Shown here in pieces: positions 26,771 through 64,000 of a stretch of DNA of 64,000 bases. A program made the position numbers and the translations under genes. The notes under the pieces were generated by a model. That model had not been told where the DNA came from. It made no database searches and worked only from the letters and a program-made list of their open reading frames with translations. This DNA comes from Turneriella sp. GTDB taxonomy: Bacteria; Spirochaetota; Leptospiria; Turneriellales; Turneriellaceae. Each line of letters opens with the position of its first letter. Position 1 is the stretch's first letter. Location of the stretch: contig CBDIID010000003.1 of assembly GCA_965279515.1 (NCBI GenBank), forward strand, positions 64,001 to 128,000. Reading direction: 5' to 3'.

Positions 26771-26844
26771 ATCTTTGCCGCGAAGACCCGAGCACGCGAC
26801 CCAGCCGAAGGCGATCGCCGCGCAGCGCGTAAAATTTGTTGTCT
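26771..26844 (-). repeat. attC-like site 0 (truncated by IS481)
   Basis: Right half only: CCCGAGCACGCG...GCGTAAAATTTGTT. Confidence 0.8.
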
Positions 26845-26888
26845 GAAGTAATTGCGCCTGTGAGCCCGGGCAGGGATGGCCGGGCGAC

Positions 26889-27707
26889 TCAGAAGCCGTA
26901 ACCTATAGATACAGTTAGATGGATGTCATGCACAAAAGAATTTCTACCAATATCAGGCCAAACCTCTGCATTCGAAAATAGATACGTTAATTGGTAATAA
27001 AGATTAAATCTAAACTGCCAGCTATACCAGAAGCGACCTGTCATGCCCACGCCAACACGCGCAGTCGGGCCATGAACAAATACGCTAGTTGGGGCAGTTG
27101 TAATTTGTGTTTGTCCATTTGGTGCCCCAAGCGCCGAGATAAGACTATTATAACCTGCGTATGGATAATAAGAACCTAAATCATACCCAACTTGGCCCAG
27201 AAGATCGAAAGAACTAAAGCCACTCCCGGGATACAAATGTATCTCCTTACCAATCAGTAGTGTATGGAGCGAAACAATCAAGCTATCAGAAATATGTTTA
27301 AAGTTCGAAGTATCGGTACAATACTGGCCGCAATAGCTAGTCTTACCCGCGTTAATGCGTTGGAGTTGGGAACGATACAGATAAGAAAGCAATGTTGACC
27401 ATCGTTCTGATTCGTAAGCTTGATAGTTAATGCCAAATACAAGGGTAAAAATAGTCGCATCAGCTGACTGCTGAGAACCATTAGGTACTGCGGTGGAAAC
27501 CCCCAATGCATTTGTATACTGATTCTCTCGAGTATAAATGCCACCGATTGCTGTGCCGATGCCAAACTCAAGAATAATATTATTCTGAGGAAAGTTAGAT
27601 TTAGCTTCTTGTGAAGTTTTCTCGACTCTTTTCTCAATCGCTTCTATTTTCGCAACGATAAAAGCGGAAAATACGACGATACAGACAAGGAAGAAAAATC
27701 TCACCAT
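26889..27707 (-). CDS. Cassette gene: outer-membrane beta-barrel-like protein
   Basis: 272 aa, signal peptide, ends VSIGYGF. Confidence 0.75.
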   Translation of the reverse strand: MVRFFFLVCIVVFSAFIVAKIEAIEKRVEKTSQEAKSNFPQNNIILEFGIGTAIGGIYTRENQYTNALGVSTAVPNGSQQSADATIFTLVFGINYQAYESERWSTLLSYLYRSQLQRINAGKTSYCGQYCTDTSNFKHISDSLIVSLHTLLIGKEIHLYPGSGFSSFDLLGQVGYDLGSYYPYAGYNSLISALGAPNGQTQITTAPTSVFVHGPTARVGVGMTGRFWYSWQFRFNLYYQLTYLFSNAEVWPDIGRNSFVHDIHLTVSIGYGF

Positions 27708-27764
27708 TAGGTAAATACAAACTGTTTTACAGATTGTAAAGACAAGGAAATTTTCTGGGGTTTG

Positions 27765-28906
27765 TCTTTAGTCCGGAGACATATGTTACAGTGGGGTTGC
27801 TGAAATAAGCGCCCGCCCTTAAGCGGTTTTTACCACAAAACTAAACTTAAGGGAGCGGGCAAATGTACGATTACCAAGAAGCATATCGGCGCATAAAGCG
27901 CAATTTTCATTACTACAAGGGAGATGTCACAGTCCGTATGCGGGCTATGCAATTGTTAAGGGTGCTACGGACGATTACGAAAGGACGATCCGTAGAACTT
28001 GCCTCTGAACTACAGGGTGTCAGGCGGCAGTATTTTTATTTCTGGCTGCGACGGCTGATTGCCACCGACTATGATTTGCAGAGCCTGAAAGGGCGTTCAA
28101 AAAGGCCACACTGCTCACGTAATGCCAAACCAAAATCAGTTATTCTGAAAGTGAAGGAAATTCGTAAGCTCGACGAATCTGGCGGCCATACCATCGCTTT
28201 GATTCTACGACGTGATTTTGGTATCCGCATCGCCGGTTCAACGGTCTGCAACATTCTGAAACGGGAGGGTATTAGCAAGGTTTATCGCTACCAGAAACGC
28301 AATGAGCACACGAAGCGGTATAGCGTAGAAAACCCTTTAAATACGGTGCAAACAGACAGTGCCTGGACGGGGTTTGCAGACAATCACGGTAACAGGGTTT
28401 ATTATTTTCCAGTGATCGATGATTGTTCGCGGGTGGCGACGGTTCATGTCTGCGATTCAAAATCCGGAGATGAAGCGATCAAAGGGATGCAAAGATTCAT
28501 TGAGGCATTCGGCAAACCAGATCAGGTTCAGACCGATAATGGTGTGGAGTTCACCAATCGATTTACTTCACGCAGAAATGCGAAACGGGAGAAAGACGGA
28601 ACATACGCTTTGTTTGAGCAATTTCTGTTCACACAGGCCATACCACATCGGCTAATCAAGGTTCGGACACCTGAGCATAATGGCAAGGTCGAACGGTTCA
28701 ACGGAACCTTAAAAAGGTTTCTTCAACGCAGGGCCAAAGATGGAATGAGCATCCTCCAATTTCAGACGTTGATTGATCAGCACATGGACTGGTACAACCG
28801 CCGCCGGCCACATTGGTCATTGAACGGGTTGACCCCGCACGAGCGGTTCTATGGAGTCCGCTTGGCAAAAATCGCATAAGTGTACGATATCTCCCCGGAC
28901 TCTACA
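27765..28906 (+). mobile_element. IS481-family element with 15-bp target duplication
   Basis: Imperfect 28-bp IRs; ATTTTCTGGGGTTTG at 27750-27764 and 28907-28921. Confidence 0.88.
27863..28879 (+). CDS. IS481-family DDE transposase
   Basis: VIDDCSR, VQTDNGVEF, TPEHNGKVERFN, YNRRRPHWSL. Confidence 0.9.
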   Translation: MYDYQEAYRRIKRNFHYYKGDVTVRMRAMQLLRVLRTITKGRSVELASELQGVRRQYFYFWLRRLIATDYDLQSLKGRSKRPHCSRNAKPKSVILKVKEIRKLDESGGHTIALILRRDFGIRIAGSTVCNILKREGISKVYRYQKRNEHTKRYSVENPLNTVQTDSAWTGFADNHGNRVYYFPVIDDCSRVATVHVCDSKSGDEAIKGMQRFIEAFGKPDQVQTDNGVEFTNRFTSRRNAKREKDGTYALFEQFLFTQAIPHRLIKVRTPEHNGKVERFNGTLKRFLQRRAKDGMSILQFQTLIDQHMDWYNRRRPHWSLNGLTPHERFYGVRLAKIA

Positions 28907-28999
28907 ATTTTCTGGGGTTTGAAACTCAACAAGAAATATTGATCCAGCTATGTTCACCGCCGACACGAGGTCGGCGAATAACAAAGGCGCAATTATTTC

Positions 29000-29213
29000 A
29001 GACAACGTGGAATTTACCTGAAGTTGAGTGACGCTTCGTTCAACTTTGTATTCTGTAAGGCCATTCTGCGTCACTCAATCTGCCCGAAGCGCCTCGCGGC
29101 AAAGCACAAAACAAGCGTCCCGCTTGTGCTTTGTCCGCGATCTTCGGCGCGCAGGGCCGAGCACGCGAGGAGCTGCGGCACCGCAGCGGCGCAGCAGGTA
29201 AATTTTGTTGTCG
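29000..29213 (-). repeat. attC-like site 1
   Basis: AAC GTGG AATTTACCTG...CAGGTAAATT TT GTT. Confidence 0.85.
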
Positions 29214-29276
29214 GCAGTACTTGCGGCATTTCGAGGGCAACCTGCAAACCACGGAGGGTTTGCAGGAGTATTTTAG

Positions 29277-30528
29277 CAGTCTCCTGAAAAACTCTTGATT
29301 TTCTGGATTTTCTGTGCGTATATGAAATATGCGCGGGAATAAACCAGATCAAGATGATCTTTATAGTTACATTTCACTCGAGGAGCGGGTGCCGATGTCG
29401 CATCCGCTGCGTCCCATGAGGCAAATTATCGATGATGTGCTCAAAGCAATGAGCAAGAAATTTGATAAGGTTTATTCGAAGACAGGCAGGCCGAGCATTC
29501 CACCAGAGGTACTCGTTAAGACGCTTTTCCTGCAGGTGCTTTATGGAATCCGCAGCGAGCGTCTGGCTTTAGAGCAACTCGATTTCAACCTGCTCTACCG
29601 ATGGTTCGTCGGCATTACCATGAACCAGAAGATTTGGGACGAAACAGTATTCACCAAGAATCGCGATCGGCTCTTTGCTGGTGAAGCACTCGACGCATTC
29701 TTCGCGGCAGTTATCAAGGAAGCAGATAAACGTGGCTTGCTATCACATGACCATTTCAGCGTAGATGGTACGCTAATCGAATCCTGGGCTTCGCTGAAGA
29801 GCTTCAAGAGCAAAGATCACCCGGACAATAATGGCGACGATGGCGATCCGGGCAACCCCAGTGTCGATTTTCATGGCGAAAAAGACGCAATGACACTCAC
29901 CAATCCACGACGGATACACAGGCAAAACTCTATCGTAAAGGCAAGGGTAAAGAAGCACGCCTGTACTACATGGGCCATTTGCTGATGGAAAATCGCAACG
30001 GGCTCGCGGTGGCTGCGAGTGCAACACAGGCCGGATATCACGAAGAACGAACATCTGCTTTACAAATGTTGAAATCATTGAAGCGAAGCGGAAGAATAAC
30101 CATGGGCGGGGACAAGCATTACGACGATCTGGAATTTGTCCGAGACCTTAAATCGATACAGGTCACCGCGCATGTTGCGCAGAATATCCATTCCCGACGC
30201 CATCATAGTGCGATTGATGAGCGGACAACCCGGCATTCAGGCTACGAAGTGAGTCAGCGGAAACGCAAGCGCATAGAAGAGATATTTGGCTGGGCGAAGG
30301 GCTTCAGTACTTTGCGGCGACCGCATTTTCGCGGACTGAAGCGCATTGGCGCATTTTTCAAGTTCGTCATCAGTGCGTATAACCTTATGAGGATACGAAA
30401 TCTATGCCACGGATAGCACCTCTGCGAATGAAAAGACCGGGCGCCCTGAAAACGCACAACCCACCTGCATTTCCTGAGGCGCTAAGTTCCGAAAATTCCT
30501 GCTCTATCCCCCATTTTTCCGGAGACTG
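29277..30528 (+). mobile_element. IS5-family element
   Basis: IRs CAGTCTCC(T/G)GAAAAA; TTAG target duplication at 29273-29276 and 30529-30532. Confidence 0.9.
29329..30416 (+). pseudogene. IS5-family transposase split by a frameshift near 29880
   Basis: ORFs 29329-29985 and 29970-30416 together align with the intact transposase at 56735-57826. Confidence 0.8.
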
Positions 30529-30951
30529 TTAGATGGTTAAAACCCGTTCATTAAGCACTGATTGCAGCTTCGCGATATTGCGCAATGTCGGATTAGCCTT
30601 CTTAGGGTTCTCAAAATTCTGATAATTCTGGTAAGGAATATTCATTTTGGCTGCCAATTGCTTTTGAGTCAAATTGCGCTTTTTTCTGGCTAATTTAAGC
30701 CAAATAGCAAAGGCTACGTTCTCACTCGGCGCTACCAAATGAATTCCTTTCCCGGCTTTGTGCGATGGCTGAGGAATCTCTTGCTCTCTCAGGTCTATGG
30801 ATTCTAAGTACCCATCCAATGCTTCTTTAGCATGGGTCAAAGCTTCATCCAAGGAATACCCAAAAGTAAGGCAGCCAGGTAAGTCTGGGAATTCAACGCT
30901 AAAAGCGCCTTCTGATTTCGAATGAGTGATTTTCGCCGGATACTTAATCAT
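30529..30951 (-). CDS. hicB: HicB antitoxin with C-terminal HTH
   Basis: VEFPDLPGCLTFG...EAL..AKEAL plus XRE HTH. Confidence 0.9.
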   Translation of the reverse strand: MIKYPAKITHSKSEGAFSVEFPDLPGCLTFGYSLDEALTHAKEALDGYLESIDLREQEIPQPSHKAGKGIHLVAPSENVAFAIWLKLARKKRNLTQKQLAAKMNIPYQNYQNFENPKKANPTLRNIAKLQSVLNERVLTI

Positions 30952-31127
30952 TTTAGCCCACTTTGTTTAAGAATTGCATTCAGAGTTCCTTTCGGGATAT
31001 CTGAATTGCCATGCACCGGCACAACAACGGTTGAGGCGCCTTTCACCATGATGTGATGGGAGCCCTTTATACGATCCAGAACCCAACCGTTTTTTTTGAG
31101 CTTTTTCAATAGCTCCTTGCCTGACAT
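30948..31127 (-). CDS. hicA: HicA toxin (59 aa, absent from the ORF track)
   Basis: Manual translation MSGKELLKKLKKNGWVLDRIKGSHHIMVKG...VPVHGNSDIPKGTLNAILKQSGLK; ATGA overlap with hicB. Confidence 0.9.
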   Translation of the reverse strand: MSGKELLKKLKKNGWVLDRIKGSHHIMVKGASTVVVPVHGNSDIPKGTLNAILKQSGLK

Positions 31128-31226
31128 CCGGAATAATACACATTATTATATGTATCGTCAATCTTTTCCGGGTTTTCCTCTGCGTTCCGAAGCCGCCGAA
31201 ACATGGATGTTTCGGGCAATAATGGC

Positions 31227-31442
31227 ACCTAACTTGGATTTTACGCTGACGTTTTTTGACGCTTGTGTCATTTATTCAGTCTGTAAAGCCGATTTGCGTC
31301 AAAAAATGTGGTCGTAGCGGCTCGCAGTGGCGCGCAAAAGCAAGCGTCCCGCTTGCGCGACATCTGCGATCTTTGCCGCGAAGACCCGAGCACGCGAGGA
31401 GCTACGGCACCGCAGCGGCGCAGCGCGTAAAATTTGTTGGGC
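31227..31442 (-). repeat. attC-like site 2
   Basis: AAC...ATTTTACGC...GCGTAAAAT TT GTT. Confidence 0.85.
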
Positions 31443-31507
31443 GACGTCACGGGCCTAACGGCAAAAATATTTGACACAATGTCTTGTGTGAAGTGTTGTG
31501 TAGCTAT

Positions 31508-31708
31508 ATGGCAACGAACTTAGCTATAGACAACAAGCTATTAAATGAGGCTCTTAAAATAGGTCATTTCAGATCTAAAAAGGACACCGTTAATACGGCT
31601 TTGCGTGAATTTATTCAAAAACGACGCCAAAAGGATATCCTGAGTTTGTTTGGAACTATAGACTTTGATTCTAAGTATGACTATAAAAAAGCTCGTAGTC
31701 GGATATGA
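31508..31708 (+). CDS. vapB: VapB-type antitoxin
   Basis: MATNLAIDNKLLNEAL...KKDTVNTALREFI. Confidence 0.88.
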   Translation: MATNLAIDNKLLNEALKIGHFRSKKDTVNTALREFIQKRRQKDILSLFGTIDFDSKYDYKKARSRI

Positions 31709-32109
31709 ATATTATTCCAGATACCCCCGTCTGGTCGTTAGTTCTGCGAAGAGATATGCCCAACCGTGAAGTGCAAAACCTGTTTGTCCGATTCATTGAA
31801 GAGGGACGTGTCATCTTGCCCGGTGTTGTTAAGCAAGAACTTCTGTCAGGGGTTAGAAACCAAGCCCAATTTGATGCCTTGGCAGAGCAACTGACTCATT
31901 TTCCGGTAATATTAGCTACAGACGCAGATCACATACTTGCGGCTAAATTTTTCAATAAATGTCAAAAGTCAGGTATCCAGGGCAGCCATATCGATTTCTT
32001 AATTCTGGCACTTGCAATAAATAATTCAGCTTCTATTCTTACCTCGGATAAAGACTTCCAACATTATCAAAAGCATGTGCAGTTTGAGCTGCAAATGATT
32101 GGCCCGTGA
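31705..32109 (+). CDS. vapC: VapC PIN-domain toxin
   Basis: DTPVW, QELLSG, IDFLI, TSDKDF. Confidence 0.9.
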   Translation: MNIIPDTPVWSLVLRRDMPNREVQNLFVRFIEEGRVILPGVVKQELLSGVRNQAQFDALAEQLTHFPVILATDADHILAAKFFNKCQKSGIQGSHIDFLILALAINNSASILTSDKDFQHYQKHVQFELQMIGP

Positions 32110-32113
32110 TGTC

Positions 32114-32330
32114 GCCCAACGTGGATTTTACGCTGACGTTTTTTGACGCTTGTGTCATTTATTCAATCTGTAAAGCCGATTTGCGTCAAAAAATGTGGTC
32201 GTAGCGGCTCGCGGCGGCGCGCGAAAACACACCTCCCGGTGTGCGCGTCGTCCGCGATCTTTGCCGCGGAGACCCGAGCACGCGAGGAGCTACGGCACCG
32301 CAGCGGCGCAGCGCGTAAAATTTGTTGTCT
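32114..32330 (-). repeat. attC-like site 3
   Basis: Same repeat family. Confidence 0.85.
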
Positions 32331-33024: not shown

Positions 33025-33247
33025 AGACAACGTGGAATTTACCCGAAGTCGATAGTGCGTCGCACAATAAATGCAGTCTTCACTCGAAAGCCACGACTTG
33101 ATGCACTATCGATTTGCCGAAGGTCGCCTCGTTGCGCCCGACCAAACAAACGTCCCGTTTGTCGGGCGTCAACGACTCCTGGCGACCGAGGCCGAGCACG
33201 CCCGCCAACGGAGTGCGGGCGCGCGCAGCGGGTAAATTTTGTTGTGC
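33025..33247 (-). repeat. attC-like site 4
   Basis: Same repeat family, TCGATAGTGC arm variant. Confidence 0.85.
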
Positions 33248-33294
33248 GAAGGTTTTGCGCCATACGGTAGATGCTTAGCAAAAAATTCCATGGC

Positions 33295-33747
33295 CTAAAT
33301 TAGAATCTTAGTTTCAATGAAATCTAGTCTTTTGCTTAACAAATCTGCCATTTGACGGGTCGGGCGGGCATCCACCGGTATCAAGTCTTCGATTGATCTC
33401 CCTTCTCGCACGGCGTCTACCCAGCGACCCATTTCATACACATAACCAGAAAGAGCCGCCGCTGGCGTTTCGTTATCAATCGCTGATATATAAGCAGATG
33501 GCAAATCACCCACGACTACCCAAAGCCAATTATCGGCCTTGCCATTTGGCAATATCTCAAAGAGGAAAACGGCCACTATACCACCAACTCCCAGGCCAAA
33601 ATGCGCATCTTTGATTTTCTTACACCAAGAGTGGCTTCTCAGATAGTCACTAGCCTCGAGATACATCTTCTTAAGCATTTTAGTGTCTGCGGCGTCTTCC
33701 CCGCGCATCTTTTTGATCGGCACAATATTCTTAAATTCAGCTTTCAT
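33295..33747 (-). CDS. Cassette gene: hypothetical (DUF4826-like WVVVGDLP motif)
   Basis: ORF filling the cassette; start placed at MKAEFK. Confidence 0.7.
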   Translation of the reverse strand: MKAEFKNIVPIKKMRGEDAADTKMLKKMYLEASDYLRSHSWCKKIKDAHFGLGVGGIVAVFLFEILPNGKADNWLWVVVGDLPSAYISAIDNETPAAALSGYVYEMGRWVDAVREGRSIEDLIPVDARPTRQMADLLSKRLDFIETKILI

Positions 33748-33815
33748 ATTTATTGCAAAAGTTCCATCAAACTCCAGCAAAATACCCTTCCACGATGAAA
33801 AATAAATGCGCAGGT

Positions 33816-35147
33816 TCAATATCAGAACATCGGTAACGAAAAGTCATCACGACATCGGTAACAGTTCTGCCTCAGGCTTTGCCGTGGTTTCCTCCTGATT
33901 TGGTGTAAACAAATAATTGTTCCGATCGATGTAGCCCAATAGCAGGCCACCGAAGTAGACGTCGATGCGCATGTCGGCGATAAACCGGAGCCCGATCGGG
34001 TAGCCGTTAAAAGAATTGCCGATAAATATCCGGTGCTGCTTGTAGTTGGTGTAACCGCGGTCATTTACCATGCGTACGATGCAATCCTCAGGGTAGGCGG
34101 GTACTACGTCGCCAATATACGGAATTTCAGATGGTAGGTAGAACTCTGATGGCGTCCTCATGCCCAGGGCTTCATGCGGTCGCACATTGTTGAAGTCTTC
34201 GCGCCACTGATCAAACGAAATCTGGTGAAGCTTTAGATCACCGCGAATGCGCCCCTGCAGTTCCGTGCGGATGTCTCTGTGCATACGCTCATGGCCACCA
34301 TTCTGGGCTGGCTTTCCCGGATCAATGCGGTCCAGAGAAATTCCCAAGGACAGCCACCAGACTGACAATTTTGTCAGGCCAAAGAGTCCCCACGATGATG
34401 CGAAAGGAGTTCCGTTGTCAGAGCGAATAATTTCCGGCAGACCATAGCGTTTGAAGAGTCTGGCAAAGTGTTGTTTTACATTGGAAATATTGCCCTTTTC
34501 CAGTATCTGTATCGACAGGATGTACTTACTGTACTCATCGCGAACTGTCAGAGGTTCGCATTTCTCTGCATGTGCAGTATACCACCACCCCTTGAAATCA
34601 ACCGTCCATATGTGATTGGGATGCGTCGCCTTTTCGCGAAGCATCAGCCTCTCTCCGGTTCTGCGGCGCTTCTTTCCTCTTGGCCTTGTCAGACCAGAGC
34701 GCGCCAGAAGGCGATCGACTGTAGGAACTGAAATATCGTCTTTGCGCTCCGGGTAAAGCCTGCAGAAAACCGCATAGATCTTCTTGGCTCCCCAGCGCGG
34801 CCTGTTATTCTTTATGCGAATAATATCGCAGATTGTTTCTTCGTCAGTGCGGTTCGGATTGCCTCCTGGTTTTCGTGACAACTCCGCCAATCCAGCTAAG
34901 CCTTTTTCCAGAAACCTTGCCTTCCACTTGTACCCTGTCTTGGTGCTGATGCCAAACTCGCGGCACAGCTCTGTGAAACTCTCTACGCCCTCCAGGGCGC
35001 GAAAGACAAAAGATCTTTTCTCTTCCATTTTGGTAACCTCTTTCCACGGCATTTGAGCCCCCTGCCGAAGGCAGGCAAAAGCTCTTTGCGAAGCAAAGTG
35101 TTACCGATGTCTTGATAGAAATGTGTTACCTATGTCGTGATAGTACC
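33816..35147 (-). mobile_element. IS481-family element, copy 2
   Basis: Both ends carry tandem ACAT(C/A)GGTAAC repeats; no target duplication visible. Confidence 0.85.
33847..35052 (-). CDS. IS481-family transposase
   Basis: Close paralogue of 25395-26675. Confidence 0.9.
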   Translation of the reverse strand: MPWKEVTKMEEKRSFVFRALEGVESFTELCREFGISTKTGYKWKARFLEKGLAGLAELSRKPGGNPNRTDEETICDIIRIKNNRPRWGAKKIYAVFCRLYPERKDDISVPTVDRLLARSGLTRPRGKKRRRTGERLMLREKATHPNHIWTVDFKGWWYTAHAEKCEPLTVRDEYSKYILSIQILEKGNISNVKQHFARLFKRYGLPEIIRSDNGTPFASSWGLFGLTKLSVWWLSLGISLDRIDPGKPAQNGGHERMHRDIRTELQGRIRGDLKLHQISFDQWREDFNNVRPHEALGMRTPSEFYLPSEIPYIGDVVPAYPEDCIVRMVNDRGYTNYKQHRIFIGNSFNGYPIGLRFIADMRIDVYFGGLLLGYIDRNNYLFTPNQEETTAKPEAELLPMS

Positions 35148-35158
35148 CCGCCAATGTC

Positions 35159-35375
35159 ACACAATGTGGATTTTACGCTGACGTTTTTTGACGCTTGTGT
35201 CATTAATTCAATCAGGCAAGCCGATTTGTGTCACCAAATCTGCCCGGAGCGCCTCGCGGCAAAGCACAAAACAAGCGTCCCGCTTGTGCTTTGTCCGCGA
35301 TCTTCTGGCGCGCAGGGCCGAGCACGCGAGGAGCTACGGCACCGCAGCGAGCGCAGCAGGTAAATTTTGTTGTCT
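35159..35375 (-). repeat. attC-like site 5 (core AAC mutated to AAT, chimeric arms)
   Basis: CACAAT GTGG ATTTTACGC...CAGGTAAATT TT GTT. Confidence 0.8.
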
Positions 35376-35425
35376 GACGTTTCTAACCCGCAATATGCCG
35401 CCGTAGCCATGGAGGGCGAAGGCGG

Positions 35426-35722
35426 TTAGTGGAAAGGCTCCTGTAGAATCCTTGCCCCATGCCAAATGATACCTATTTCAACGCGATCTTCACGCACTCT
35501 GTAAATTATGCGATAATCTTGAAAGATGACCTCTCGATAGTCTTTATCAGGAAATTCCGGGACTTTTCGGCCCATTAAGGGATGCTGTTCCAGTTGCTTA
35601 ACGCGGATGTTTATTTCCCGGGCAAGTAACTTGGCATAGGGTAATGAAAACTGTTCAATATACTGGCAAATTGCTTCGAAGCTTTGTATTGCCGGTTCTG
35701 ACCACCTTATTCGGAAAGCCAT
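35426..35722 (-). CDS. RelE/ParE family toxin
   Basis: IRWSEPAI...HPLMGRKVPE...YREVIFQDYRIIYRV...HGAR. Confidence 0.88.
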   Translation of the reverse strand: MAFRIRWSEPAIQSFEAICQYIEQFSLPYAKLLAREINIRVKQLEQHPLMGRKVPEFPDKDYREVIFQDYRIIYRVREDRVEIGIIWHGARILQEPFH

Positions 35723-35901
35723 TTAGCCATGCGCTTTTCCACTTCTTCGTGATCAACGCCACCATTCTTATCTAAATCACTAAAGGCAGCGTCTACCCGT
35801 GCCCTGAAGTAGAGCTTTTCCATAATATCTGATACCGTAGCAGTATCTGGCAATGAGTCTATCATTTTGACGACCTCATCTTTTACTGTAGCCTGTGCCA
35901 T
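35707..35901 (-). CDS. Antitoxin partner of the RelE/ParE toxin
   Basis: KDEVVKMIDSLPD...DIMEKLYF...HEEVEKRMAKWL; overlaps toxin start. Confidence 0.8.
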   Translation of the reverse strand: MAQATVKDEVVKMIDSLPDTATVSDIMEKLYFRARVDAAFSDLDKNGGVDHEEVEKRMAKWLSE

Positions 35902-36035
35902 AAGACAGGATAGCCAAGCCATTTAGTGCAGCAAGGATTTTCCAGAAATCTCGCTCTAAGCTAAAGTAAGCTCAATCACCAGGGCTCGACCGCGGCATGG
36001 ATGCCGCGTGCATGGTATTGCGGGTTAGAAATGTC

Positions 36036-36258
36036 AGACAACATGGAATTTACACGAGGTCGATGGTGCGCCGCACAATAATAGTGGGCTTATTTGGAAA
36101 GCCGCATATTAAGCACCATCGATCTGCCGTAGACCGCTCGTTGCGCCTGACCAAACAAACGTCCCGTTTGTCAGGCGTCAACGATCTTTGCGGTCGGAGG
36201 CCGAGCACGCGAGGAGCTACGGCACCGCAGCGAGCGCAGCAGGTAAATTTTGTTTTCT
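36036..36258 (-). repeat. attC-like site 6
   Basis: Same repeat family. Confidence 0.85.
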
Positions 36259-36332
36259 GACGTAGCTGCCCTTGTGAACCCGGCCATGGACGGCCGGGTG
36301 AAAATTTGGAATACTGGCCCGCGGCAAAATGA

Positions 36333-37381: not shown

Positions 37382-37601
37382 AGAGAACGTGGAATTTACC
37401 TGAGGTCGATAGTGCGTCGCACAACAAATGCAGTCTTCATTCGAAAGCCGCGGCTTGATGCACTATCGATCTGCCGTAGGTCGCCTCGTTGCGCCCGACC
37501 AAACAAACGTCCCGTTTGTCGGGCGTCAACGAGTCTTCGCGACCGGAGGCCGAGGACGCGAGCCAACGAAGTGCGCACGCTCGCAGCGGGTAATTCTTGT
37601 T
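37382..37601 (-). repeat. attC-like site 7 (interrupted at its GTT by IS1182)
   Basis: Repeat continues as GTTAGGC at 39339. Confidence 0.85.
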
Positions 37602-39338
37602 GAATCTGTAGAATAAGATTGCTTTGGCCTGAAAATTGCCGTAGTTACGTAGGTTATAATGCAACATATCGGGAGAAACCCATGCCGCGATTTAGATCAG
37701 AAAACAGAAGCCAGAATATGCTTGTGCCGGTCGATCTTTCGGATCAGATAATGAAGGGGACACTGGAAGCGACGATCAACGAAGCAATCAATCGGATGGA
37801 CATGACGCCGTTTACCCGCAGAATCAAGAACGACCTCACCGGTGCGCCGGCATATGATCCACGCTCGTTGCTCAAGGTGATTCTCTTTGCCTATTCGCGG
37901 GGGATTTTGTCTTCGCGCCGTATTGCCGATGCCTGCGAGAAGCACATTGTGTTCATGGCCTTGAGCGGTTATAGCAAGCCTAATTTTACCACAATTGCTG
38001 ATTTTATCTCTTCGATGGGGGCAGAGGTTAAGCAGGTTTTCATCCACATTCTGCGAGTCTGTGCGAAAATGGATTTAATCGGCGCGGAGCGCTTTGCGAT
38101 TGATGGGCACAAGCTTTCCTCGAGCGCCGCTAAGGAACATAGCGGTCGCTTTGCCGATTTCAAAAAGCGTATCGAAAAATACTCCGACCTGATCGGGGCT
38201 CTGGTCAGGCAGCATGCAGAAACAGATTTGAAAGAGAGAAAGGCAGCGTTGGCACAAAAGCGTAATCGGCTGACAGCGAAGAAAGAACGACTGGAGGGGT
38301 TTTTAGAATCCAACCAGGCTAAACGGGCAACGCGGAAATGCGGCAAAGAGCCGACGAGCAACGTGACGGATAACGAATCGGCCAAGATAATTTCATCGCA
38401 CGGGGTGATTCAGGGCTATAACGGTGTTGCGGCGACCGATGAGAAATGCCAGATTGTGATCGCGGCCGAAGCGCACGGTACTTCTTACGAGGGCAACCTG
38501 CTGATGCCAATGCTTGGTATAGCCGAAGAGAACATGGCGGATGTCGAAATAGATAAAACAATATCAGAGATACAGGTACTTGCGGACGCAAATTACTTCA
38601 ACGAAGCAAACCTGAAGGCTATGTCAGAGAAAGGGATCGATGCGTATATACCCGATCCGATGTTTCGCAAGCGCGATCCGCGGTTTGCGAATGCAGACGA
38701 CCACAAGGGTAAGACGCGCAGGAATGTCTATGACACGAAGAAGTCACAGGGCTTGCGCGGGTTCGGACAGGAGGATTTTATCCATGACAAGAACGGTGAT
38801 TTTTACATCTGTAAATCGAGTCACCGTCTGAACCGGTGGGCCAATCACGCGAGCAGTGGTGGCCGGGTTTACGGTATTGGAAAAATTGCGCACTGTCGGT
38901 CCTGTCCTTTGCGTAACGAGTGCATGCCCGGTGGTAATGCTCGGTCCAAGAAAATGATTACAGTCGCGAGCACAGATGCAGATAGCAGGCGCATGCCGTA
39001 TTCGACCGCGATGAAGGCTAAAATTGATTCACCAGAGGGCAAGGCGATCTATGCGAGGCGGTTGCAGATTGTGGAACCGGTGTTTGCGAACACCAGGGCG
39101 CATAAAGGGATGAATAAATTTACACTCCGCGGGAAGCGAAAAGTGAATATTCAGTGGCTGCTCTACATGTCGGTTCATAATCTTTCTAAGATTGCCAGGG
39201 CAATTCGTGCGAATCCGCAGTTACAGATAGCGTGATACGGCGTGGGAAATCAGTACTGAAGGAAAAGGCGATTTAGCGGGCAGAACAAAAGACGAACAGG
39301 CCTATTGCGCTACGAGCGGGGACTTTTTCTACAGATTC
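37602..39338 (+). mobile_element. IS1182-family element inserted at the attC core
   Basis: IRs GAATCTGTAGAA(T/A)AAG; GTT duplicated at 37599-37601 and 39339-39341. Confidence 0.88.
37682..39235 (+). CDS. IS1182-family transposase
   Basis: GAPAYDP..LLKVILFAYSRG..SSRRI, AIDG, LADANY, VEPVFAN. Confidence 0.9.
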   Translation: MPRFRSENRSQNMLVPVDLSDQIMKGTLEATINEAINRMDMTPFTRRIKNDLTGAPAYDPRSLLKVILFAYSRGILSSRRIADACEKHIVFMALSGYSKPNFTTIADFISSMGAEVKQVFIHILRVCAKMDLIGAERFAIDGHKLSSSAAKEHSGRFADFKKRIEKYSDLIGALVRQHAETDLKERKAALAQKRNRLTAKKERLEGFLESNQAKRATRKCGKEPTSNVTDNESAKIISSHGVIQGYNGVAATDEKCQIVIAAEAHGTSYEGNLLMPMLGIAEENMADVEIDKTISEIQVLADANYFNEANLKAMSEKGIDAYIPDPMFRKRDPRFANADDHKGKTRRNVYDTKKSQGLRGFGQEDFIHDKNGDFYICKSSHRLNRWANHASSGGRVYGIGKIAHCRSCPLRNECMPGGNARSKKMITVASTDADSRRMPYSTAMKAKIDSPEGKAIYARRLQIVEPVFANTRAHKGMNKFTLRGKRKVNIQWLLYMSVHNLSKIARAIRANPQLQIA

Positions 39339-39369
39339 GTTAGGCGCAGTGATTTGAGCTACGTATCAA

Positions 39370-39564
39370 TCATTGTTTCGCCAAGGAGGGCGAAACAATG
39401 CGAACACCACGATCTATGATTAGTTCTTTGAATAGAGCAGAATTGTGCACTTCTTTTGATACCTTTTCAGAATATTCAGCAAGTGAAAGATGCTTATTAT
39501 TCTCGTATTCTCTGTTCCGAATACTTCTGACCCATTCGACACAATCAAATTTCTTCTTCGTCAT
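39370..39564 (-). CDS. Small putative antitoxin downstream of a PIN toxin
   Basis: MTKKKFDCVEWVRSIR, overlaps the PIN gene end. Confidence 0.7.
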   Translation of the reverse strand: MTKKKFDCVEWVRSIRNREYENNKHLSLAEYSEKVSKEVHNSALFKELIIDRGVRIVSPSLAKQ

Positions 39565-40015: not shown

Positions 40016-40134
40016 TTTCAGCTAAAATATGCTCTAAAGATATATAAGGTCAACGCATAAATGTCGTGGCCAAAATCGACTGATGCCCGCCACGGATGGC
40101 GGGGGCGCCTTGGAAAACCCTCTCAAATCATTGC

Positions 40135-40349
40135 GCCTAACGTGGAATTTACCTGAGGTTGAGTGACGCTTTGTTCAAGTTTGTGTTCTGTAAAGCCATT
40201 TTGCGTCACTCAATCTGCCCGGAGCGCCTTGCGGCAAAGCACAAAACAAGCGTCCCGCTTGTGCTTTGTCCGCGATCTTCTGGCGCGTAGGGCCGAGCAC
40301 GCGAGGAGCCACGGCACCGCAGCGGCGCAGCAGGTAAATTTTGTTGTAC
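40135..40349 (-). repeat. attC-like site 8
   Basis: Same repeat family. Confidence 0.85.
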
Positions 40350-51165: not shown

Positions 51166-51380
51166 ACCCAACGTGGAAAATACCCGAATTGCGCCCCCGC
51201 GGGTGTAAAGTGCAAATAATCACGGTTTATGCGACTTTCGTGGAGCGCATTTGCCCGTAGCGCCTCGCGAGCCCGCCAATGCAGGCCCACTGGCCTGCGG
51301 GCGCAGCGATCTTTGGCGCGCAGGGCCGAGCACGCGACCCAACGTAGTGGTCGCGGCGCAGCGGGTATTTTTTGTTAGCC
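51166..51380 (-). repeat. attC-like site 22
   Basis: Same subtype as sites 13, 16 and 19. Confidence 0.85.
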
Positions 51381-51567
51381 GCCGTTACCGGATTCGCGCG
51401 GCTGGCGAACAACCCGAAGGTCGGCTATATACTGTAGTTCGATCTTCTTAGTCACCGAGGAGTTGTCGCCAGGATCAAAGGCGTAAGCAGCAAGAGCCGG
51501 CTGTACTCTCTGACAACAAATCCTCTTCTTCTCCCCTTCGGGCGCGAAGGAGGTAATGGTGGCTAAC
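51374..51567. other. ORF-less cassette, copy 3 (diverged)
   Basis: Homologous to 47115-47308 with scattered substitutions. Confidence 0.8.
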
Positions 51568-54591: not shown

Positions 54592-54805
54592 AGAGAACGT
54601 GGAATTTACCTGAGGTTGAGTGACGCCTCGTTCAACTTTGCATTTTGTAAAACCATTTTGCGTCACTCAATCTGCCCGGAGCGCCTCGCGGCAAAGCACA
54701 AAACAAGCGTCCCGCTTGTGCTTTGCCCGCGATCTTTGGCGCATAGGGCCGAGCACGCGAGGAGCTACGGCACCGCAGCGGCGCAGCAGGTAAATTTTGT
54801 TAGCT
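54592..54805 (-). repeat. attC-like site 26
   Basis: Same repeat family. Confidence 0.85.
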
Positions 54806-54820
54806 GAAGTAGTCACGCAA

Positions 54821-55252
54821 TTAGGTTGCGCCCTTTTTTTCAATCGTTTTGAGAAATTCATTGGGGGTCATGATAATAGCAGAATTTTTCGGATAATCTT
54901 TGGTATTCCGCGAAATGAATATATCTACTTTACCCTTTTTGAAAGCAAAATACTGCACGGAATCTTCAAAATCACGCATGTTTGAGGCCAATGCCGAGTC
55001 TATTGTTTCCTCTGTTACGGGGAGTATATGCACCAATTTTCTAAATTTCTGCAGAATCGACCTTGCTTGAGTCGCCCCAACATTTTTGCTCAGCAAATAA
55101 TACAAGTTCCAGACGATCAACGATGAAACAAAGCCTTGGATTTGCCTATTTTCAAGCAGATTGATAATTTTTACAGCAGCCGCATCGTGAGGCTGACGTT
55201 GCGCCAAATAATCTAAAATAACGTCTGAGTCTAAATATACCTTCTGCGTCAC
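54821..55252 (-). CDS. PIN-domain toxin
   Basis: VYLDSDVILD, DFEDSVQY, ISRNTKDY. Confidence 0.9.
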   Translation of the reverse strand: MTQKVYLDSDVILDYLAQRQPHDAAAVKIINLLENRQIQGFVSSLIVWNLYYLLSKNVGATQARSILQKFRKLVHILPVTEETIDSALASNMRDFEDSVQYFAFKKGKVDIFISRNTKDYPKNSAIIMTPNEFLKTIEKKGAT

Positions 55253-55513
55253 TTATTTATACTTCTTCTCGATATAGTCTGCAATATCTAATTTGTAATC
55301 GAGAGAGAGTTTCCCTTTGAGGACGCCATGAAGTTCCTGGGTTATAGGCCCAAGTGCATTCGTACTAGTCTTAGAGTCATTTTTTGAAATAGTGGAAAGA
55401 TAGTCTTGGACTATCTTTGAAATGCTCTTACCCCTTTTTTGGGCATATTTCTCGGCACTTTCAATGGTTTTCTTATCTAAGGACAATGTTAGTTTTGCAC
55501 TGGACGAATGCAT
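55253..55513 (-). CDS. DUF6364-type RHH antitoxin
   Basis: KLTLSLDKKTIESAEKYA...SISKIVQDYL...YIEKKYK. Confidence 0.85.
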   Translation of the reverse strand: MHSSSAKLTLSLDKKTIESAEKYAQKRGKSISKIVQDYLSTISKNDSKTSTNALGPITQELHGVLKGKLSLDYKLDIADYIEKKYK

Positions 55514-55570
55514 ACGTACATTTTAATAAAAATACTTACGTACGACAAGTTTTTCTTGCGTGACTATTTC

Positions 55571-55786
55571 AGCTAACGTGGAATTTACCTGAGGTTGAGT
55601 GACGCTTCGTTCAACTTTGTATTTTGTAAAGCCATTTTGCGTCACTCAATCTGCCCGGAGCGCCTCGCGGCAAAGCACAAAACAAGCGTCCCGCTTGTGC
55701 TTTGTCCGCGATCTTCTGGCGCGTAGGGCCGAGCACGCGAGGAGCCACGGCACCGCAGCGAGCGCAGCAGGTAAATTTTGTTGTGC
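55571..55786 (-). repeat. attC-like site 27
   Basis: Same repeat family. Confidence 0.85.
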
Positions 55787-56627
55787 GCCGATTGCGCTTC
55801 TTTCATAGACCGCTTCTAAGCTGCTCCATGATGCTAGGAGTTGACAGTTCTGCATACGTTAATTCTCGAGTTTCCTTAATCTCAATAGCCCGGCAAGGCC
55901 CGGTACTTTCGTTATCATGGCCTGATCTTAGATTTTTTTCCACAGCTGTATAAATGATAATTTTACCACGTGGTTTGTTAGAATAAGCTATAAAGCTAAA
56001 AGGTTGATTACGATAAAATCGGACTGAAAACTTGCCTTGAACTTCAATGCCTGAGAAATAGGTTTTTTTCTCTCTATGTATTAAAAACGGGTAGAAATCT
56101 ACCGCTTTTTCAGGTACTTTGCCTTCGACGCAACTCATCGGTTCCGGATAAGGCCAACTTGGGCCATGTTCATAGCCAGCCATGAGGGCCGTCTCTGTTT
56201 GTTTATCAGGAATTGATTCAGAAATCATGACGACATAAATATCATCCATGACATGGAGATCTGCTTCCATTTTGAGAGTGCGTTCGTTAATGAACTTAAA
56301 TGCTCTGCCACGACTGCGTTGTCCGTAACTGCCGATAGATATGGCACAGCCCCCGGGGTAGTCGAAGTCAAACTGCCCAAGTTTGTCCGTAGGCCAAACT
56401 TTTAGGGTAGTTCGATCGATAATTGGGAAAAATCTAGCAGGTGAACCGTTATTAAAAATAATTCTCCCTTTCAAGCGACGCTTAATTGAAGGGTCGCAGT
56501 TTATATAAACTGGGGGGCCTGGAATTTCCTGGCGCCAGCCAGCGCCGGTGAGATCGTATTTCAGGATAGTCCGCGTAGGCGCGTCTATCGTTATTTGGTG
56601 TAACTGGTTATGTTCCGCCGCTCCTAG

Positions 56628-57868
56628 CAGGGTGTTGAAAAACGCATAGAATCGGGTATCCGTTCAAACCATAAATACGATTGGACGGGCACGTATTTTG
56701 CGCCTTGCCACCTTCGCTTCTGGGCGCAACGGGCTCATAGCTTGCCAGCCAAAATAACCAGATTGGCTGCCGCCATCGTGAATATGAAATGAAAGCCAAC
56801 CTTAGCTTTGCCGCAGTAGCGTGTTTTACGGATACCACCGATGGTTTTGCCCCAGCCAAATAATTCTTCAATCCGTTTGCGAACGCGTTGGCTGATTGCA
56901 TAGCCGGTACTTCGCGCCGTTCGGCGATCAAGGCCTGGTGTTTTTCGTGTTTCAATCATGGCGATGTGCGGTTTTATCTTCAATGACCTGAGCGATGCTA
57001 CCATGTCTTTCGTATGGTAGCCTTTGTCTGCACCCAATGTTCGCGGCTTGATTTTGCGCTTGCGGAGATTCTTTAATAGAGCAAGCAAGCCACGGCGTTC
57101 TGCTTTGCCATCAGCAGCCTCCAGGTTTGCCGCAACACAAAGACCGGTACGATTTTCCATGACGACATTACCGCAGTAAGACAGCTTTGCTTCTTTGCCG
57201 GGGCCCTTGCGTGCAAGCATGGATTCGGGATCAGTAGTACTGGCATGTGTTTCATTGCTGCGTTTTTCATCGTGAAAATTCACGATCGGATTGCGACTGG
57301 TGTCTATTGGCTTTTCGCGTTTTACGTCTGCATCTTTTTGTTTCGGCTTAAAGCTTTTAAGCGATGCCCATGCTTCGATCAATGTGCCGTCAGCGGTGAA
57401 GTGTTCATCAGAGACCAGATTCTTGCTTTGCGCAAAACGAACGACCTGCGCCAGAAAGCTATTTGCGATTTCCTGATTGAGGAGGCGTTCGCGGTTTTTG
57501 GCAAAAGTACTGTGATTCGGAACAGGATCATTCGGCATCAGATCAAGAAACCAGCGGAAGAGAAAATTGTAGCTGAGTTGTTCACAAAGCTGGCGCTCCG
57601 AACGAATCGAATAAAAAGCGATCAGAAGCGATGCCTTCAGCAAAAACTCCGGCGGTATCGAGGGTCTGCCAGCATCGGCGTACATCTTATCAAGTGCTCC
57701 ATCCAGTTTGCCGAGCACGTCATCGGCCATAGTCTTGATTTTACGCAATGGATGCGACGGCGGAATCAGATCTTCCGCAGAGAAATTGTAGAGAAAATTC
57801 ATCTGAGCTTTTTGGTCACCGCGCATTGGCTCAATATAATCAAAATTAAGGACTTCTTCAACACCCTG
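56628..57868 (-). mobile_element. IS5-family element
   Basis: IRs CAGGGTGTTGAA; CTAG duplication at 56624-56627 and 57869-57872. Confidence 0.9.
56735..57826 (-). CDS. IS5-family transposase
   Basis: HPLRKIK, GRPSIPPE, DGTLIEAWAS, GADKGY, RKRIEELFGWGK. Confidence 0.92.
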   Translation of the reverse strand: MRGDQKAQMNFLYNFSAEDLIPPSHPLRKIKTMADDVLGKLDGALDKMYADAGRPSIPPEFLLKASLLIAFYSIRSERQLCEQLSYNFLFRWFLDLMPNDPVPNHSTFAKNRERLLNQEIANSFLAQVVRFAQSKNLVSDEHFTADGTLIEAWASLKSFKPKQKDADVKREKPIDTSRNPIVNFHDEKRSNETHASTTDPESMLARKGPGKEAKLSYCGNVVMENRTGLCVAANLEAADGKAERRGLLALLKNLRKRKIKPRTLGADKGYHTKDMVASLRSLKIKPHIAMIETRKTPGLDRRTARSTGYAISQRVRKRIEELFGWGKTIGGIRKTRYCGKAKVGFHFIFTMAAANLVILAGKL

Positions 57869-57970
57869 CTAGATGCCATAATGTTAGGCTTAAAAATAAT
57901 AAATTTCTGAAAATTGAAATTTTATTCTTCTGGTTAAATTTCATTGAAGTGCTCTGAGTTATGACATTTC

Positions 57971-58186
57971 AGACAACGCGGAATTTACCTGACGTTTGGT
58001 GACGCTTGTGTCATTATTTCAACCTGTAAAGCCTATTTGCGTCACCAAATGTGCCCGAAGCGCCTGCCCGAGCCCGGCAAAACCAAGCTCCCGCTTGGCC
58101 GGGCGCAGGGCATCTTTGGCGCGTAGGGCCGAGCACCCGAGGAGCCACGGCACCGCAGGGAGCGCAGCAGGTAAATTTTGTTGTGC
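57971..58186 (-). repeat. attC-like site 28
   Basis: Same repeat family. Confidence 0.85.
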
Positions 58187-62262: not shown

Positions 62263-62267
62263 GATGG

Positions 62268-63188
62268 TCAATATGGCTTCGGTTTAACTGGCATGCGCGC
62301 CTTCATCATTTTGATGATAGAGGCTTTTGTTTCTTGCTTCGGAATATAGCCAAGAATAGCTGATATCGCGGTATCATTGTACTTGGTACCTTCATAGACA
62401 CTGATTATCTGGATTTTGATATTTTGGGTTTTTTCTGGAAATATTATGGAGGAAAACTTTATCTCATCTTTAAAATCATGTAGTATCTCAAATTTGTCCG
62501 CAACTATTTTGATCTGTTTTAAACGGTTGTTTTGAGCAAAAAGGTACGGTCTATATATGTCTACATATCCGTTCAAAATTGTCATTCCGTCAGTTTTTCG
62601 GGTAAAAGTAACATTAATTTCCTCGGTTGAGCCAAAATCGGCTTCACCTTCTACCCAAGGCGGTACTAATTCGTCATAGTTAAAATCATGACAGGAGCAC
62701 CCTCGATAGAATTTTCGTTTCAACCAATCGGATTTGTAATCAATCTTCCGGCCGAAGATTGATTCAGAATAGAAAGATTTTGTGGAGATACTCTTAAGAT
62801 TAATATCAGATGGCTTAAACACGACGGAATTATTAGACCGAACACCGTAGTTACCCACATAATGTTCAGACATGCTCTCTTTACTCGGTAAATAGAATGC
62901 CTGATTAAAGGAATCACCTGGGATAAGGATGTATTTTCGATCACGAAGCTTAAACTGAATGAAGCTATTTTCTGTCTCAAAAACTATTTTCTTTGTAACA
63001 TCATCAAAAGCAGACTTCAATGAATCTTGCTCGTATTGAAATACTTTACGGCCATCAATTATCAAGCCGCCATTATCCATTAAGGGTAAAGGTATTACAT
63101 CCTCTGATTTTGGATAATCTATGCCACCGAGCTGGCCAAGGGTTATCAGTGATAGAAGTAAGGCGCGCATATAAGTTTTATTTGCCAT
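62268..63188 (-). CDS. Cassette gene: exported protein with NADase-type glycan-binding/discoidin-like domain
   Basis: PWVEG...ILNGY...NNRLKQIKI...SVYEGTKYNDTAIS. Confidence 0.75.
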   Translation of the reverse strand: MANKTYMRALLLSLITLGQLGGIDYPKSEDVIPLPLMDNGGLIIDGRKVFQYEQDSLKSAFDDVTKKIVFETENSFIQFKLRDRKYILIPGDSFNQAFYLPSKESMSEHYVGNYGVRSNNSVVFKPSDINLKSISTKSFYSESIFGRKIDYKSDWLKRKFYRGCSCHDFNYDELVPPWVEGEADFGSTEEINVTFTRKTDGMTILNGYVDIYRPYLFAQNNRLKQIKIVADKFEILHDFKDEIKFSSIIFPEKTQNIKIQIISVYEGTKYNDTAISAILGYIPKQETKASIIKMMKARMPVKPKPY

Positions 63189-63198
63189 ATTGACTTTC

Positions 63199-63421
63199 GC
63201 ACAACGTGGAATTTACACGAGGTCGATGGTGCGTTGCACAAAAACAGCAGGCTTATTTAGAAAACCGCGTATTAAGCACCATCGATCTGCCGTAGACCGC
63301 TCGTTGCGCCTGACCAAACAAACGTCCCGTTTGTCAGGCGTCAACGATCTTTGCGGTCGGAGGCCGAGCACGCGAGGAGCCACGGCACCGCAGCGAGCGC
63401 AGCGTGTAAATTTTGTTGTGT
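63199..63421 (-). repeat. attC-like site 34
   Basis: Same repeat family, close to site 6. Confidence 0.85.
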
Positions 63422-63445
63422 GCCGTTTTGCATCGTTGCCATAAT

Positions 63446-63961
63446 CTATGGAACGATTCTGATTTTTAGTGTCAGAAACGTCTTATCTCTGTATATATGT
63501 AGTTCCGCTTCGGAGCCAGGTAGCTCATTTCGGTTATTCGCCAATTCTTGCAATTTTGATGAAATCTTGCGAAATTCTTTTTCCCAACAAGGATTCGGCG
63601 TTTGATCAAAGTCAGTCGGACAGGATCTGACTAAGTTGAAATCTTGCACCTGGCAGATTATATCACCATCCTTGAATAGGCGGCCACGGAATAGTTGAGT
63701 CCTTGCAATCTTATACCCATCGATTCGGCCATCCAGCGCCCGTGGGCCAAATTGACTAGAAGGCGGTTCTTTGTGATGAACATACACCAAATCAAAATAC
63801 TCATTCACTTCAGTTAAATTTAGGTCGGCATATATCGTTTTTCCTTGCTGCCAATTCCAACATGATTCTGGTGAAGTATTTGCTGGCTTCTCTGTGCGAG
63901 CTTTACTGCACAACAGTAGCAATGTAATCAGTAAGAGTGCATTGCTTGGGTAAAATTTCAT
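63446..63961 (-). CDS. Cassette gene: putative lipoprotein
   Basis: Hydrophobic leader ending LLLC. Confidence 0.7.
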   Translation of the reverse strand: MKFYPSNALLLITLLLLCSKARTEKPANTSPESCWNWQQGKTIYADLNLTEVNEYFDLVYVHHKEPPSSQFGPRALDGRIDGYKIARTQLFRGRLFKDGDIICQVQDFNLVRSCPTDFDQTPNPCWEKEFRKISSKLQELANNRNELPGSEAELHIYRDKTFLTLKIRIVP

Positions 63962-63974
63962 CTTGCAAAATGGC

Positions 63975-64000
63975 ACACAACGTTGGAATTTCGCGAGGTG
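63975..64000 (-). repeat. attC-like site 35 (cut by window edge)
   Basis: ACACAAC GTTGG AATTT; cassette end matches GTTGTGTGCC at 63415. Confidence 0.7.

Follow-up and report, generated by a model that had tools for sequence, protein, structure and literature searches.

Long paired cassette ends with a fixed G-T pair at position 11 in an integron-like array of a spirochaete

The described systems closest to the DNA considered here are the integrons and the XerC/D recombination of folded phage DNA. In integrons the crossover lies at AA|C (PMC5027507), the two ends of most cassettes pair with each other over 9-11 consecutive nucleotides (nt) (PMC2727003), and poor folding of array-resident sites lowers excision (PMC5371416), according to the accessible text of these papers. 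A survey judged recombinases that lie near attC sites and lack the IntI insertion not to be integron integrases (PMC4889954), and it has been left as an open question how attC sites were selected before the recognition domain existed (PMC4792948). The subject of this paper is an array of gene cassettes in a window of 64,000 nt (contig C3, positions 64001-128000) from a 4.9-Mb genome with 53% guanine plus cytosine (G000), the host being a spirochaete. Judged from its sequence, the array works like an integron yet is not a canonical integron.

This array (A) has 75 units at C3:90.8-170.7 kb, its distal half occupying window positions 26771-64000. The cassettes are read on the - strand, the + strand being the recombining (bottom) strand. 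A second array (B) of 52 units lies at C3:3734-3805 kb, and a few single sites are found elsewhere in the genome. The cassettes carry many toxin-antitoxin genes together with unknown genes, with insertion sequences (IS) in several. The window holds 34 attC-like sites, mostly 206-217 nt long. The reading that we favour, with slightly more confidence than doubt, is that the cassette ends would be an outer arm of Xer length plus a clamp of a folded single-strand site, which would be complete only in the excised circle, would mark the strand and favour insertion, and would be read by an Xer-like recombinase without the IntI insertion.

The cassette ends were located using bases inside the 200-nt sites only, and none from the cassette side, which gave 35 units in the window; one left end was reset from 37599 (the start of an IS1182 element) to 39339 before counting. 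With the G of GTT as position 1, and an in-register match defined as at least 11 of 14 at positions 4-10 and 12-18, the two ends of 28 of the 35 units match in register, and those of one more (46296-46911) match through a 1-nt slip. This agrees with the count of 29 in 35 given in an earlier sequence-only reading, whose five quoted end pairs are likewise exact and in their places. That reading gave the length of the repeat as 16-27 nt; the upper limit stands, and the lower one does not, the extent being 14-27 nt with a median of 19. The six remaining units are 29207-31233, 33241-35165 and 55780-57977, each containing a transposase gene, together with 40343-41185, 49250-49437 and 45551-46093, the last of which matches at 10 of 14. 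The sequence of the ends is specific to the cassette, as had been claimed, with 72 different hexamers at positions 13-18 among 87 pairs.

Each end matches its own partner and not that of its neighbour. Across the genome, arms of at least 16 nt are found in 111 of 127 own pairs (a set in which three ends are misplaced, to the disadvantage of the result) versus 5 of 123 neighbour pairs, the figures for the window being 25/35 and 0/34. Position by position, 105-121 of the 127 own pairs match at 4-10 and 12-17, 99 at 18, and about 60 at 19-22, so that the match nears background beyond position 18. Neighbour and shuffled pairs both give 31-71 per position, apart from positions 8 and 12, which are conserved, so neighbour ends match at the chance level.

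Position 11 is different. It carries the fixed G/A difference (G on the left, A on the right) in 34 of the 35 window units, in line with the earlier description, and genome-wide G11 is found in 126/127 left ends and A11 in 122/127 right ends. The result is a G-T wobble on the + strand. The R'' arm as a whole has T3, G8 (98%), G11 (98-100%) and T12 (79-89%). The last cassette may serve as an example: its R''-type end (26838-26859, +) has GTT, G8, G11 and T12 and a clamp up to position 22, and its R'-type end (28985-29006, +) complements it entirely save for the T facing G11, with the crossover AA|C at 29005/29006. Stop codons were considered as the source of T12 and rejected, as no stop codon ends less than 11 nt from the cassette end and only 2/63 end at 11. 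G11 and A11 also persist in chimeric units, which shows that they are two independently conserved bases and not an accident of particular pairs. It is worth adding that one end variant recurs and is kept between genomes, with one base added close to position 10 of the R' side (window 46296-46911; C3:132343 and 3738204; loci L017, L020 and L023); this suggests that the place of the wobble can accommodate a bulge.

Long matches of this kind are not routine in integrons. The control detector scores the inner arm only, and its criterion for extension was at least 6 of 7 matches at positions 12-18. Extension was seen in 0/52 distinct Treponema-family cassettes, 0/17 from mixed canonical IntI loci, and 0/27 of the Gammaproteobacteria class, where 6 of 20 regions were usable and the longest run was 12; usable cassettes were lacking in the other 14 of these regions and in 6 of 12 spirochaete IntI genomes. 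The same detector finds extension in 11 of 16 cassettes in the window, and in 42 of 67 from arrays of the Leptospira class, a label inferred for genomes of family f8. The earlier claim that canonical cassettes need R''/R' complementarity only is therefore right in that their match is far shorter (0/96 extended), and too strict in that some extension, of 9-11 nt, is already in the accessible text of PMC2727003.

A scan for long paired ends that is blind to position 11 gives a similar picture. In the two arrays of the host genome, 117/117 matches have G/A, and the 1.01 Mb of canonical loci gave a single match, with T/T. Among 20 Leptospira-class regions, 10 contain arrays, and 115 of 116 matches have G/A; these include nested repeats, amount to 97 distinct pairs, and compare with 3 matches in three-fold shuffles. 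In five relatives, 137 of 146 end pairs have G/A, and the site sequence was matched in 13 of 41 genomes searched. If the favoured reading is right, this 18-nt/G-T signature would provide a simple finder for such arrays. Upstream of the Leptospira-class recombinases, the inner-arm detector found no cassettes in 20 regions, and only a few single matches were seen.

The polarity of the array follows from three observations. In duplicated cassette bodies (29 listed pairs) the left site is kept (identity 0.83-1.00) and the right site is not (0.37-0.98), and the preceding end differs up to the AAC. The + strand gives the more stable fold in 119/120 circle forms and 108/120 resident forms. At the right end of the arrays, AAC is followed by sequence that is not part of a site. 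Together these identify the + strand with the bottom strand of integrons. The crossover is thus placed at AA|C of the + strand, and the mobile unit carries the 200-nt site on its left; the G-T pair then lies on the recombining strand, and the opposite strand shows A-C. Two points in the earlier description change as a result: the array cannot be read on the + strand, given the duplicated bodies and the junctions on the attI side, and what had been called the left end is the 3' (R'') end of the cassette. Contigs of four sequencing runs gave no usable circle junction, the joints listed falling in repeats; eight cassettes are present without any difference in contigs of runs X1 and X2, which may come from the source sample.

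The sites themselves repeat the pattern of the ends. In the example at 29004-29209 (206 nt, +), the spacer is 8 nt on the cut strand and 6 nt on its partner, the inner arm covaries and the interior is branched; in general the uncut side has a spacer of 6 nt and the cut side one of 8-9 nt. When the inner arm is read outward on the + strand, G8, G11 and T12 are present in 100, 100 and 98% of 78 Leptospira-class sites. In the host genome the same bases are in register in 69, 55 and 61% of 113 sites, with a 1-nt insertion shifting the motif in about 30%. In the predicted pairing, the first seven inner-arm positions pair without a bulge in 75/113 sites and at 6 of 7 positions in 35 more, unpaired bases sitting in the spacer and at positions 9-10; the pairs covary (26 of the 34 window sites aligned). 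Both arms thus present T3, G8, G11 and T12 outward on the + strand around the asymmetric spacer. The sequence-only reading had proposed a second recognition site outside the core, and because the inner arm has G8, G11 and T12 equally far out, a single extended binding arm with a clamp is the better description.

Several features of integron sites are present. The sites are imperfect palindromes with AAC and GTT whose crossover, as judged from duplicates and attI junctions, would be at bottom-strand AA|C; the bottom-strand hairpin is more stable than the top; and an attI-like site stands beside the recombinase gene in 5/5 relatives (18 loci in all). Other features are absent: only 18/125 cores fit the R box GTTRRRY/RYYYAAC, and in the predicted pairing there is no extrahelical G in L'' with a second extrahelical T six pairs further on. 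The attI-like sites have a 6-bp spacer, with T3 in 18/18, G8 in 18/18 and G11 in 0/18. G11 is therefore likely to be a base read on both arms of a cassette site, the facing T hiding it on the other strand. Both arrays of the host genome end in such a site, and the recombinase gene is not linked to them. Since each array has its own attI-like site and the recombinase gene stands alone, several platforms may share one enzyme. In this genome attI-like sites were noted at C3:170675, 3805401 and 4813292.

Folding calculations show when the arms would be complete. Circle-form sites are on average 13.7 kcal/mol more stable than resident ones, and the end duplex has a median of -21.5 kcal/mol in the circle versus -6.6 in residence (121 sites), compared with -7.5 and -5.4 for a canonical Treponema-family control. 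Pair probability is about 0.9 up to position 16 in the circle and about 0.1 in residence, so that sites in circle form would pair from 1 to 18 and array-resident sites would not. The earlier suggestion that the outer stem forms in the excised circle or in a fold of the whole cassette holds for the computed folds, in which it is complete only in those forms.

Under the favoured reading, each recombinase monomer would cover about positions 2-12 and read G8 and G11, with positions 13-18 acting as a clamp on the weak step at 10-11; Xer sites have an 11-bp arm and a 6-bp spacer. The G-T pair at 11 would mark which strand is used, since the other strand shows A-C, and this marking would replace the flipped-out bases and the I2 insertion of integrons. 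Full stems in circles and weak ones in the array would favour insertion over loss, and the cassettes with matched ends would be those that became re-inserted.

The folds can also be read in another way, which we consider distinctly improbable: that the two ends of a cassette pair with each other in an exposed single strand of the whole cassette, forming a three-link junction of two outer and two inner stems, in which a tetramer resolves both AA|C steps and releases a folded circle. Neighbours would then need no compatibility. This agrees with the chance-level match of neighbouring ends, and with the few cores that obey the GTTRRRY rule, which is what lets canonical neighbours pair. In folds of site, cassette and site, own ends pair with probability 0.99-1.00 in 7/7 units and resident partners do not. 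This result comes from an equilibrium model without protein or kinetics, applied to the first seven short units, and the ends pair on both strands, with position 11 pairing on the + strand only. Such a fold would require 1.5-2 kb of strand to be exposed. Resident sites adopt their local fold about 60% of the time, and the literature examined offered no precedent.

A further explanation, which the sequence-only reading had also raised and which we regard as unlikely, is that the paired ends are a footprint of cassette making or repair, one end having been copied from the other by template switching or by repair of a folded circle as a cassette arises or cycles; positions 13-18 would be a by-product, and only 1-12 would matter to the enzyme. 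The pairing is certainly clean, with 23 mismatches over 87 distinct pairs and 13 positions despite very diverse ends. Changes, too, come in pairs, and intermediates altered on one side are almost absent. The 30 of 125 cassettes that have unrelated bodies and a common frame of about 50 nt at both ends show 16 types of change on both sides versus 2 single changes inside positions 4-18, and ten comparisons across genomes gave 15 double and 0 single changes, all 15 from one cassette family. The 16 compensated types count equally in favour of the binding-arm reading. Copying should, however, erase the difference at position 11, which is kept in 87/87, 97/97 and 112/114 in-register pairs. Cassette bodies diverge to 74-84% identity without any change in their ends, a sign of purifying selection; other ends are unchanged across genomes at 74-90% body identity, and in the relative G002 a cassette 79% identical to 35369-36042 bears the same ends. 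The remaining mismatches lean modestly to G-T on the + strand (25 versus 12, p 0.047; 42 versus 13 if position 10 is counted), alongside 102 mismatches of other kinds and in lineages that are not independent. Three data sets show the sharp edge at 18.

That edge is met again in an IS481-like element of 1335 bp, whose right end is 18-19 nt away from the AAC end of a cassette in 8 of 9 cases, with differing 4-bp duplications; these ends mark the same edge as the stem. The element is confined to the two arrays (window 33813-35147 and 25395-26770; C3:138045, 144423, 157974, 3734365, 3741837, 3750273 and 3766293), and it may measure from a conserved motif rather than from a structure. The paired ends do not themselves belong to a transposon or miniature inverted-repeat transposable element, because the repeats are specific to the cassette, with no family-wide inverted repeat and target duplication, and the moving unit includes the 200-nt site outside the repeat.

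The shared frame deserves a description of its own. It occurs in the window at 26838-26897, 36252-36311 and 42327-42386 and holds a small hairpin with GGA in the loop, next to the stem, in about a quarter of cassettes; we take these loops to resemble CsrA sites. In framed cassettes the open reading frame (ORF) is opposite to the array in 20/24 scored, versus 18/77 in the others. The hairpins, and the fact that G-T (or G-U) forms on one strand only, agree with the notion that the pairing takes place in a transcript, or in an intermediate made by reverse transcription, position 11 then being G-U, and serves expression control or cassette genesis instead of DNA recombination. We consider this very unlikely: the G-U strand is antisense to most genes (63/101 longest ORFs are on the - strand), the stem lies directly against the crossover and is a mirror image of the inner arm, and Rfam gave no match in 26000-64000.

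The recombinase was sought in the host genome and its relatives. In 5/5 relatives a recombinase gene stands at the predicted end of the array and points away from it; its homolog in the host genome is at C3:2926093-2927214, and homologs were found in 87 of 121 class genomes. The first catalytic Arg and HxxR are 89-95 amino acids (aa) apart, compared with 130-132 in IntI and 95-98 in XerD/C; for the family-f8 proteins the distance is 90 aa in 8/9 and 106 in 1/9. The catalytic domain is thus about 40 aa shorter than that of IntI. The insertion near patch III is absent, the match to the VchIntIA structure (2a3v) omitting residues 173-243 and with them the IntI insertion. Scores against the integron integrase model TIGR02249 are 173-192 bits (cut-off 265), and those against XerC and XerD 171-191 bits (cut-offs 330-335), two other genes of the host looking like XerD and XerC. 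The best NCBIfam match is NF040815, with 197-222 bits and a cut-off of 220 in the four proteins scanned. In a tree of 47 rows, 19 IntI proteins form one clade (98/100) and all 21 short proteins fall outside it; a motif filter omitted nine family-f8 proteins and one metagenome protein from this tree, and long branches make its deeper order unsure. An AlphaFold model of middling quality (pLDDT, predicted local distance difference test, 63; N-terminal 90 aa unresolved) supports a tyrosine-recombinase fold only. At their N terminus the short recombinases are extended by about 90-140 aa that match no Pfam entry and are modelled with low confidence (L013:17412-17700, L019, L020). A tblastn search of plasmids found only relatives of 33-40% identity, without useful context.

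Could the array be the remnant of an ordinary integron, a cluster of attC sites that has lost its integrase and whose usual R'/R'' match is simply longer? The layout, the AAC/GTT triplets, the toxin-antitoxin cassettes and the bottom-strand skew are all integron-like, a match of 9-11 nt is allowed in print (PMC2727003), and the accessible text of PMC8138268 describes an integron-like subgroup in which the insertion is not fully conserved. This explanation is nevertheless highly improbable, given the absence of extended ends in the canonical controls, the lack of any IntI above the TIGR02249 cut-off in the host genome or of a canonical IntI in 45 family-f8 genomes (0/45), and the short recombinase that caps the arrays of relatives. 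The assumption of an ordinary integron fails on the missing IntI insertion, and because the locus also lacks membership of the IntI clade, the R-box consensus and the extrahelical bases, we do not file it as an integron.

Expression of the recombinase is probably under SOS control. The same GTTC-N7-GTTC 15-mer precedes the recombinase gene, recA, a lexA-like gene (below the TIGR00498 cut-off) and a PA0069-family gene (C3:2927215, 2600652, 4316038 and 4249241), these being 4 of 39 matches to the pattern, 15 of which are listed. The direct repeat is also found upstream of the recombinase gene in the genomes G002, G003, G005 and G011. It is likely to be an SOS box, and it differs from the LexA1 box of L. 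interrogans in the accessible text of PMC3789691. The unlinked and probably SOS-controlled gene at C3:2926-2927 kb would then act in trans on the arrays of the host.

A number of points weigh against the favoured reading, in addition to the single family behind the 15 double changes and the modest G-T lean. The host genome has four tyrosine recombinases, none of which adjoins an array. The 18 attI-like sites include near-copies, and the test of duplicated bodies consists mostly of one ORF-less cassette and three other pairs. The near-perfect pairing of very diverse ends fits copying as well as selection. Resident sites pair AAC with GTT with a probability of about 0.6, which makes them weak but not dead, and their end duplex is no weaker than that of the Treponema-family control; canonical-style excision may thus be possible and the clamp dispensable. 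Among more distant relatives, such ends were found in only 3 of 80 metagenome loci.

Cassettes on the - strand with long paired ends include 31436-32120 (20 nt; a PIN-domain gene), 35369-36042 (the longest, 27 nt; a ParE-type pair), 39339-40141 (20 nt), 54799-55577 (22 nt; PIN_3 and DUF6364 genes) and 63415-63981 (18 nt), the last whole cassette body of the window. An IS1182-family element (37599-39338, +) is inserted exactly at GTT and parts the cassette at 39339 from its site. The IS481-like element at 33813-35147 (-) has its right end 18 nt from the AAC end of its cassette, at the outer edge of the stem; a second, with its transposase, at 25395-26770 (-), truncates the terminal site. A 426-aa ORF beside the array start was considered as an integron integrase and rejected, being an IS481-like transposase. 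The ORF-less cassette at 47115-47308 (194 nt, -) has a copy at 51374-51567 and many further genomic copies, with the left site travelling along. ORF-less cassettes of 188-336 nt recur often (also at 49250-49437 in the window, at L014 and L020, and in tandem beside attI in G011). The array is flanked at 22217-25474 by a gene for a 1085-aa protein with Ig-like and Kelch domains.

Integrons are defined and detected by means of the IntI insertion, and the enzyme that accompanies the arrays of 50-75 cassettes described here lacks it. As a replacement for the flipped-out bases, the cassette ends are a concrete candidate that can be mutated. If this is true, large cassette stores in Leptospira-class bacteria have been overlooked. 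We put forward only tentatively, as a possibility short of probable, the wider proposal of a second, insertion-free chemistry of gene-cassette capture, widespread in the Leptospira class (integrons having been reported only for Treponema), in which an Xer-like enzyme would pick its strand by a G-T wobble in an 18-bp arm, in place of flipped-out bases, and excise cassettes from a fold of their own ends. Such a system would supply the stage that is missing between the Xer recombination of folded phage DNA and the integron integrases. Full novelty is opposed by the incompletely conserved insertion reported in the accessible text of PMC8138268. No account of these ends or arrays was found in the accessible literature; supplementary lists of arrays without IntI could include them.

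How, then, does this locus compare with the systems already described? It shares with the sedentary chromosomal integrons (VchIntIA, Treponema) the arrays of one- or two-gene cassettes with toxin-antitoxin pairs, the AA|C crossover on the more stable bottom strand, the complementarity of each cassette's own R' and R'', a covarying inner arm, the attI-like site beside the recombinase gene (in relatives) and a probable SOS box. In family f8 (L259-L266, L275, L276) the arrays are downstream of the recombinase gene, which has the same direction, as in Treponema; in the host's own genus they are upstream of a divergent gene. Unlike in integrons, the ends match over about 18 nt with a fixed G-T at 11, instead of 7-12 nt without it, the sites are 206-217 nt long rather than the published 57-142 nt, the spacer is 6 versus 8-9 nt with no single extrahelical G in the first seven inner-arm pairs, the cores are mostly not GTTRRRY, and the recombinase is shorter and outside the IntI clade. 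ISPa21 and the IS1111-attC group target attC sites, and here too IS elements are concentrated at cassette recombination sites; unlike those elements, the IS481-like one has its insertion point 18-19 nt beyond the crossover, where the stem ends. The SAM-like and catalytic domains of the recombinase are those of NF040815 (XerA-like recombinase/integron integrase). NF040815 and the integron-like subgroup, in the accessible text of PMC8138268, are sequence families with no cassette arrays or long paired ends attached. There is also a likeness to XerC/D on the folded attP of phage CTX (PMC4792948), where a recombinase without an I2-like domain acts on a folded strand that mimics double-stranded DNA and the receiving site also has a 6-bp spacer. 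CTX borrows the host XerC/D at dif, whereas here there would be a dedicated single recombinase, distinct from the XerC and XerD of the genome, serving arrays of up to 75 or more cassettes with diverse end sequences.

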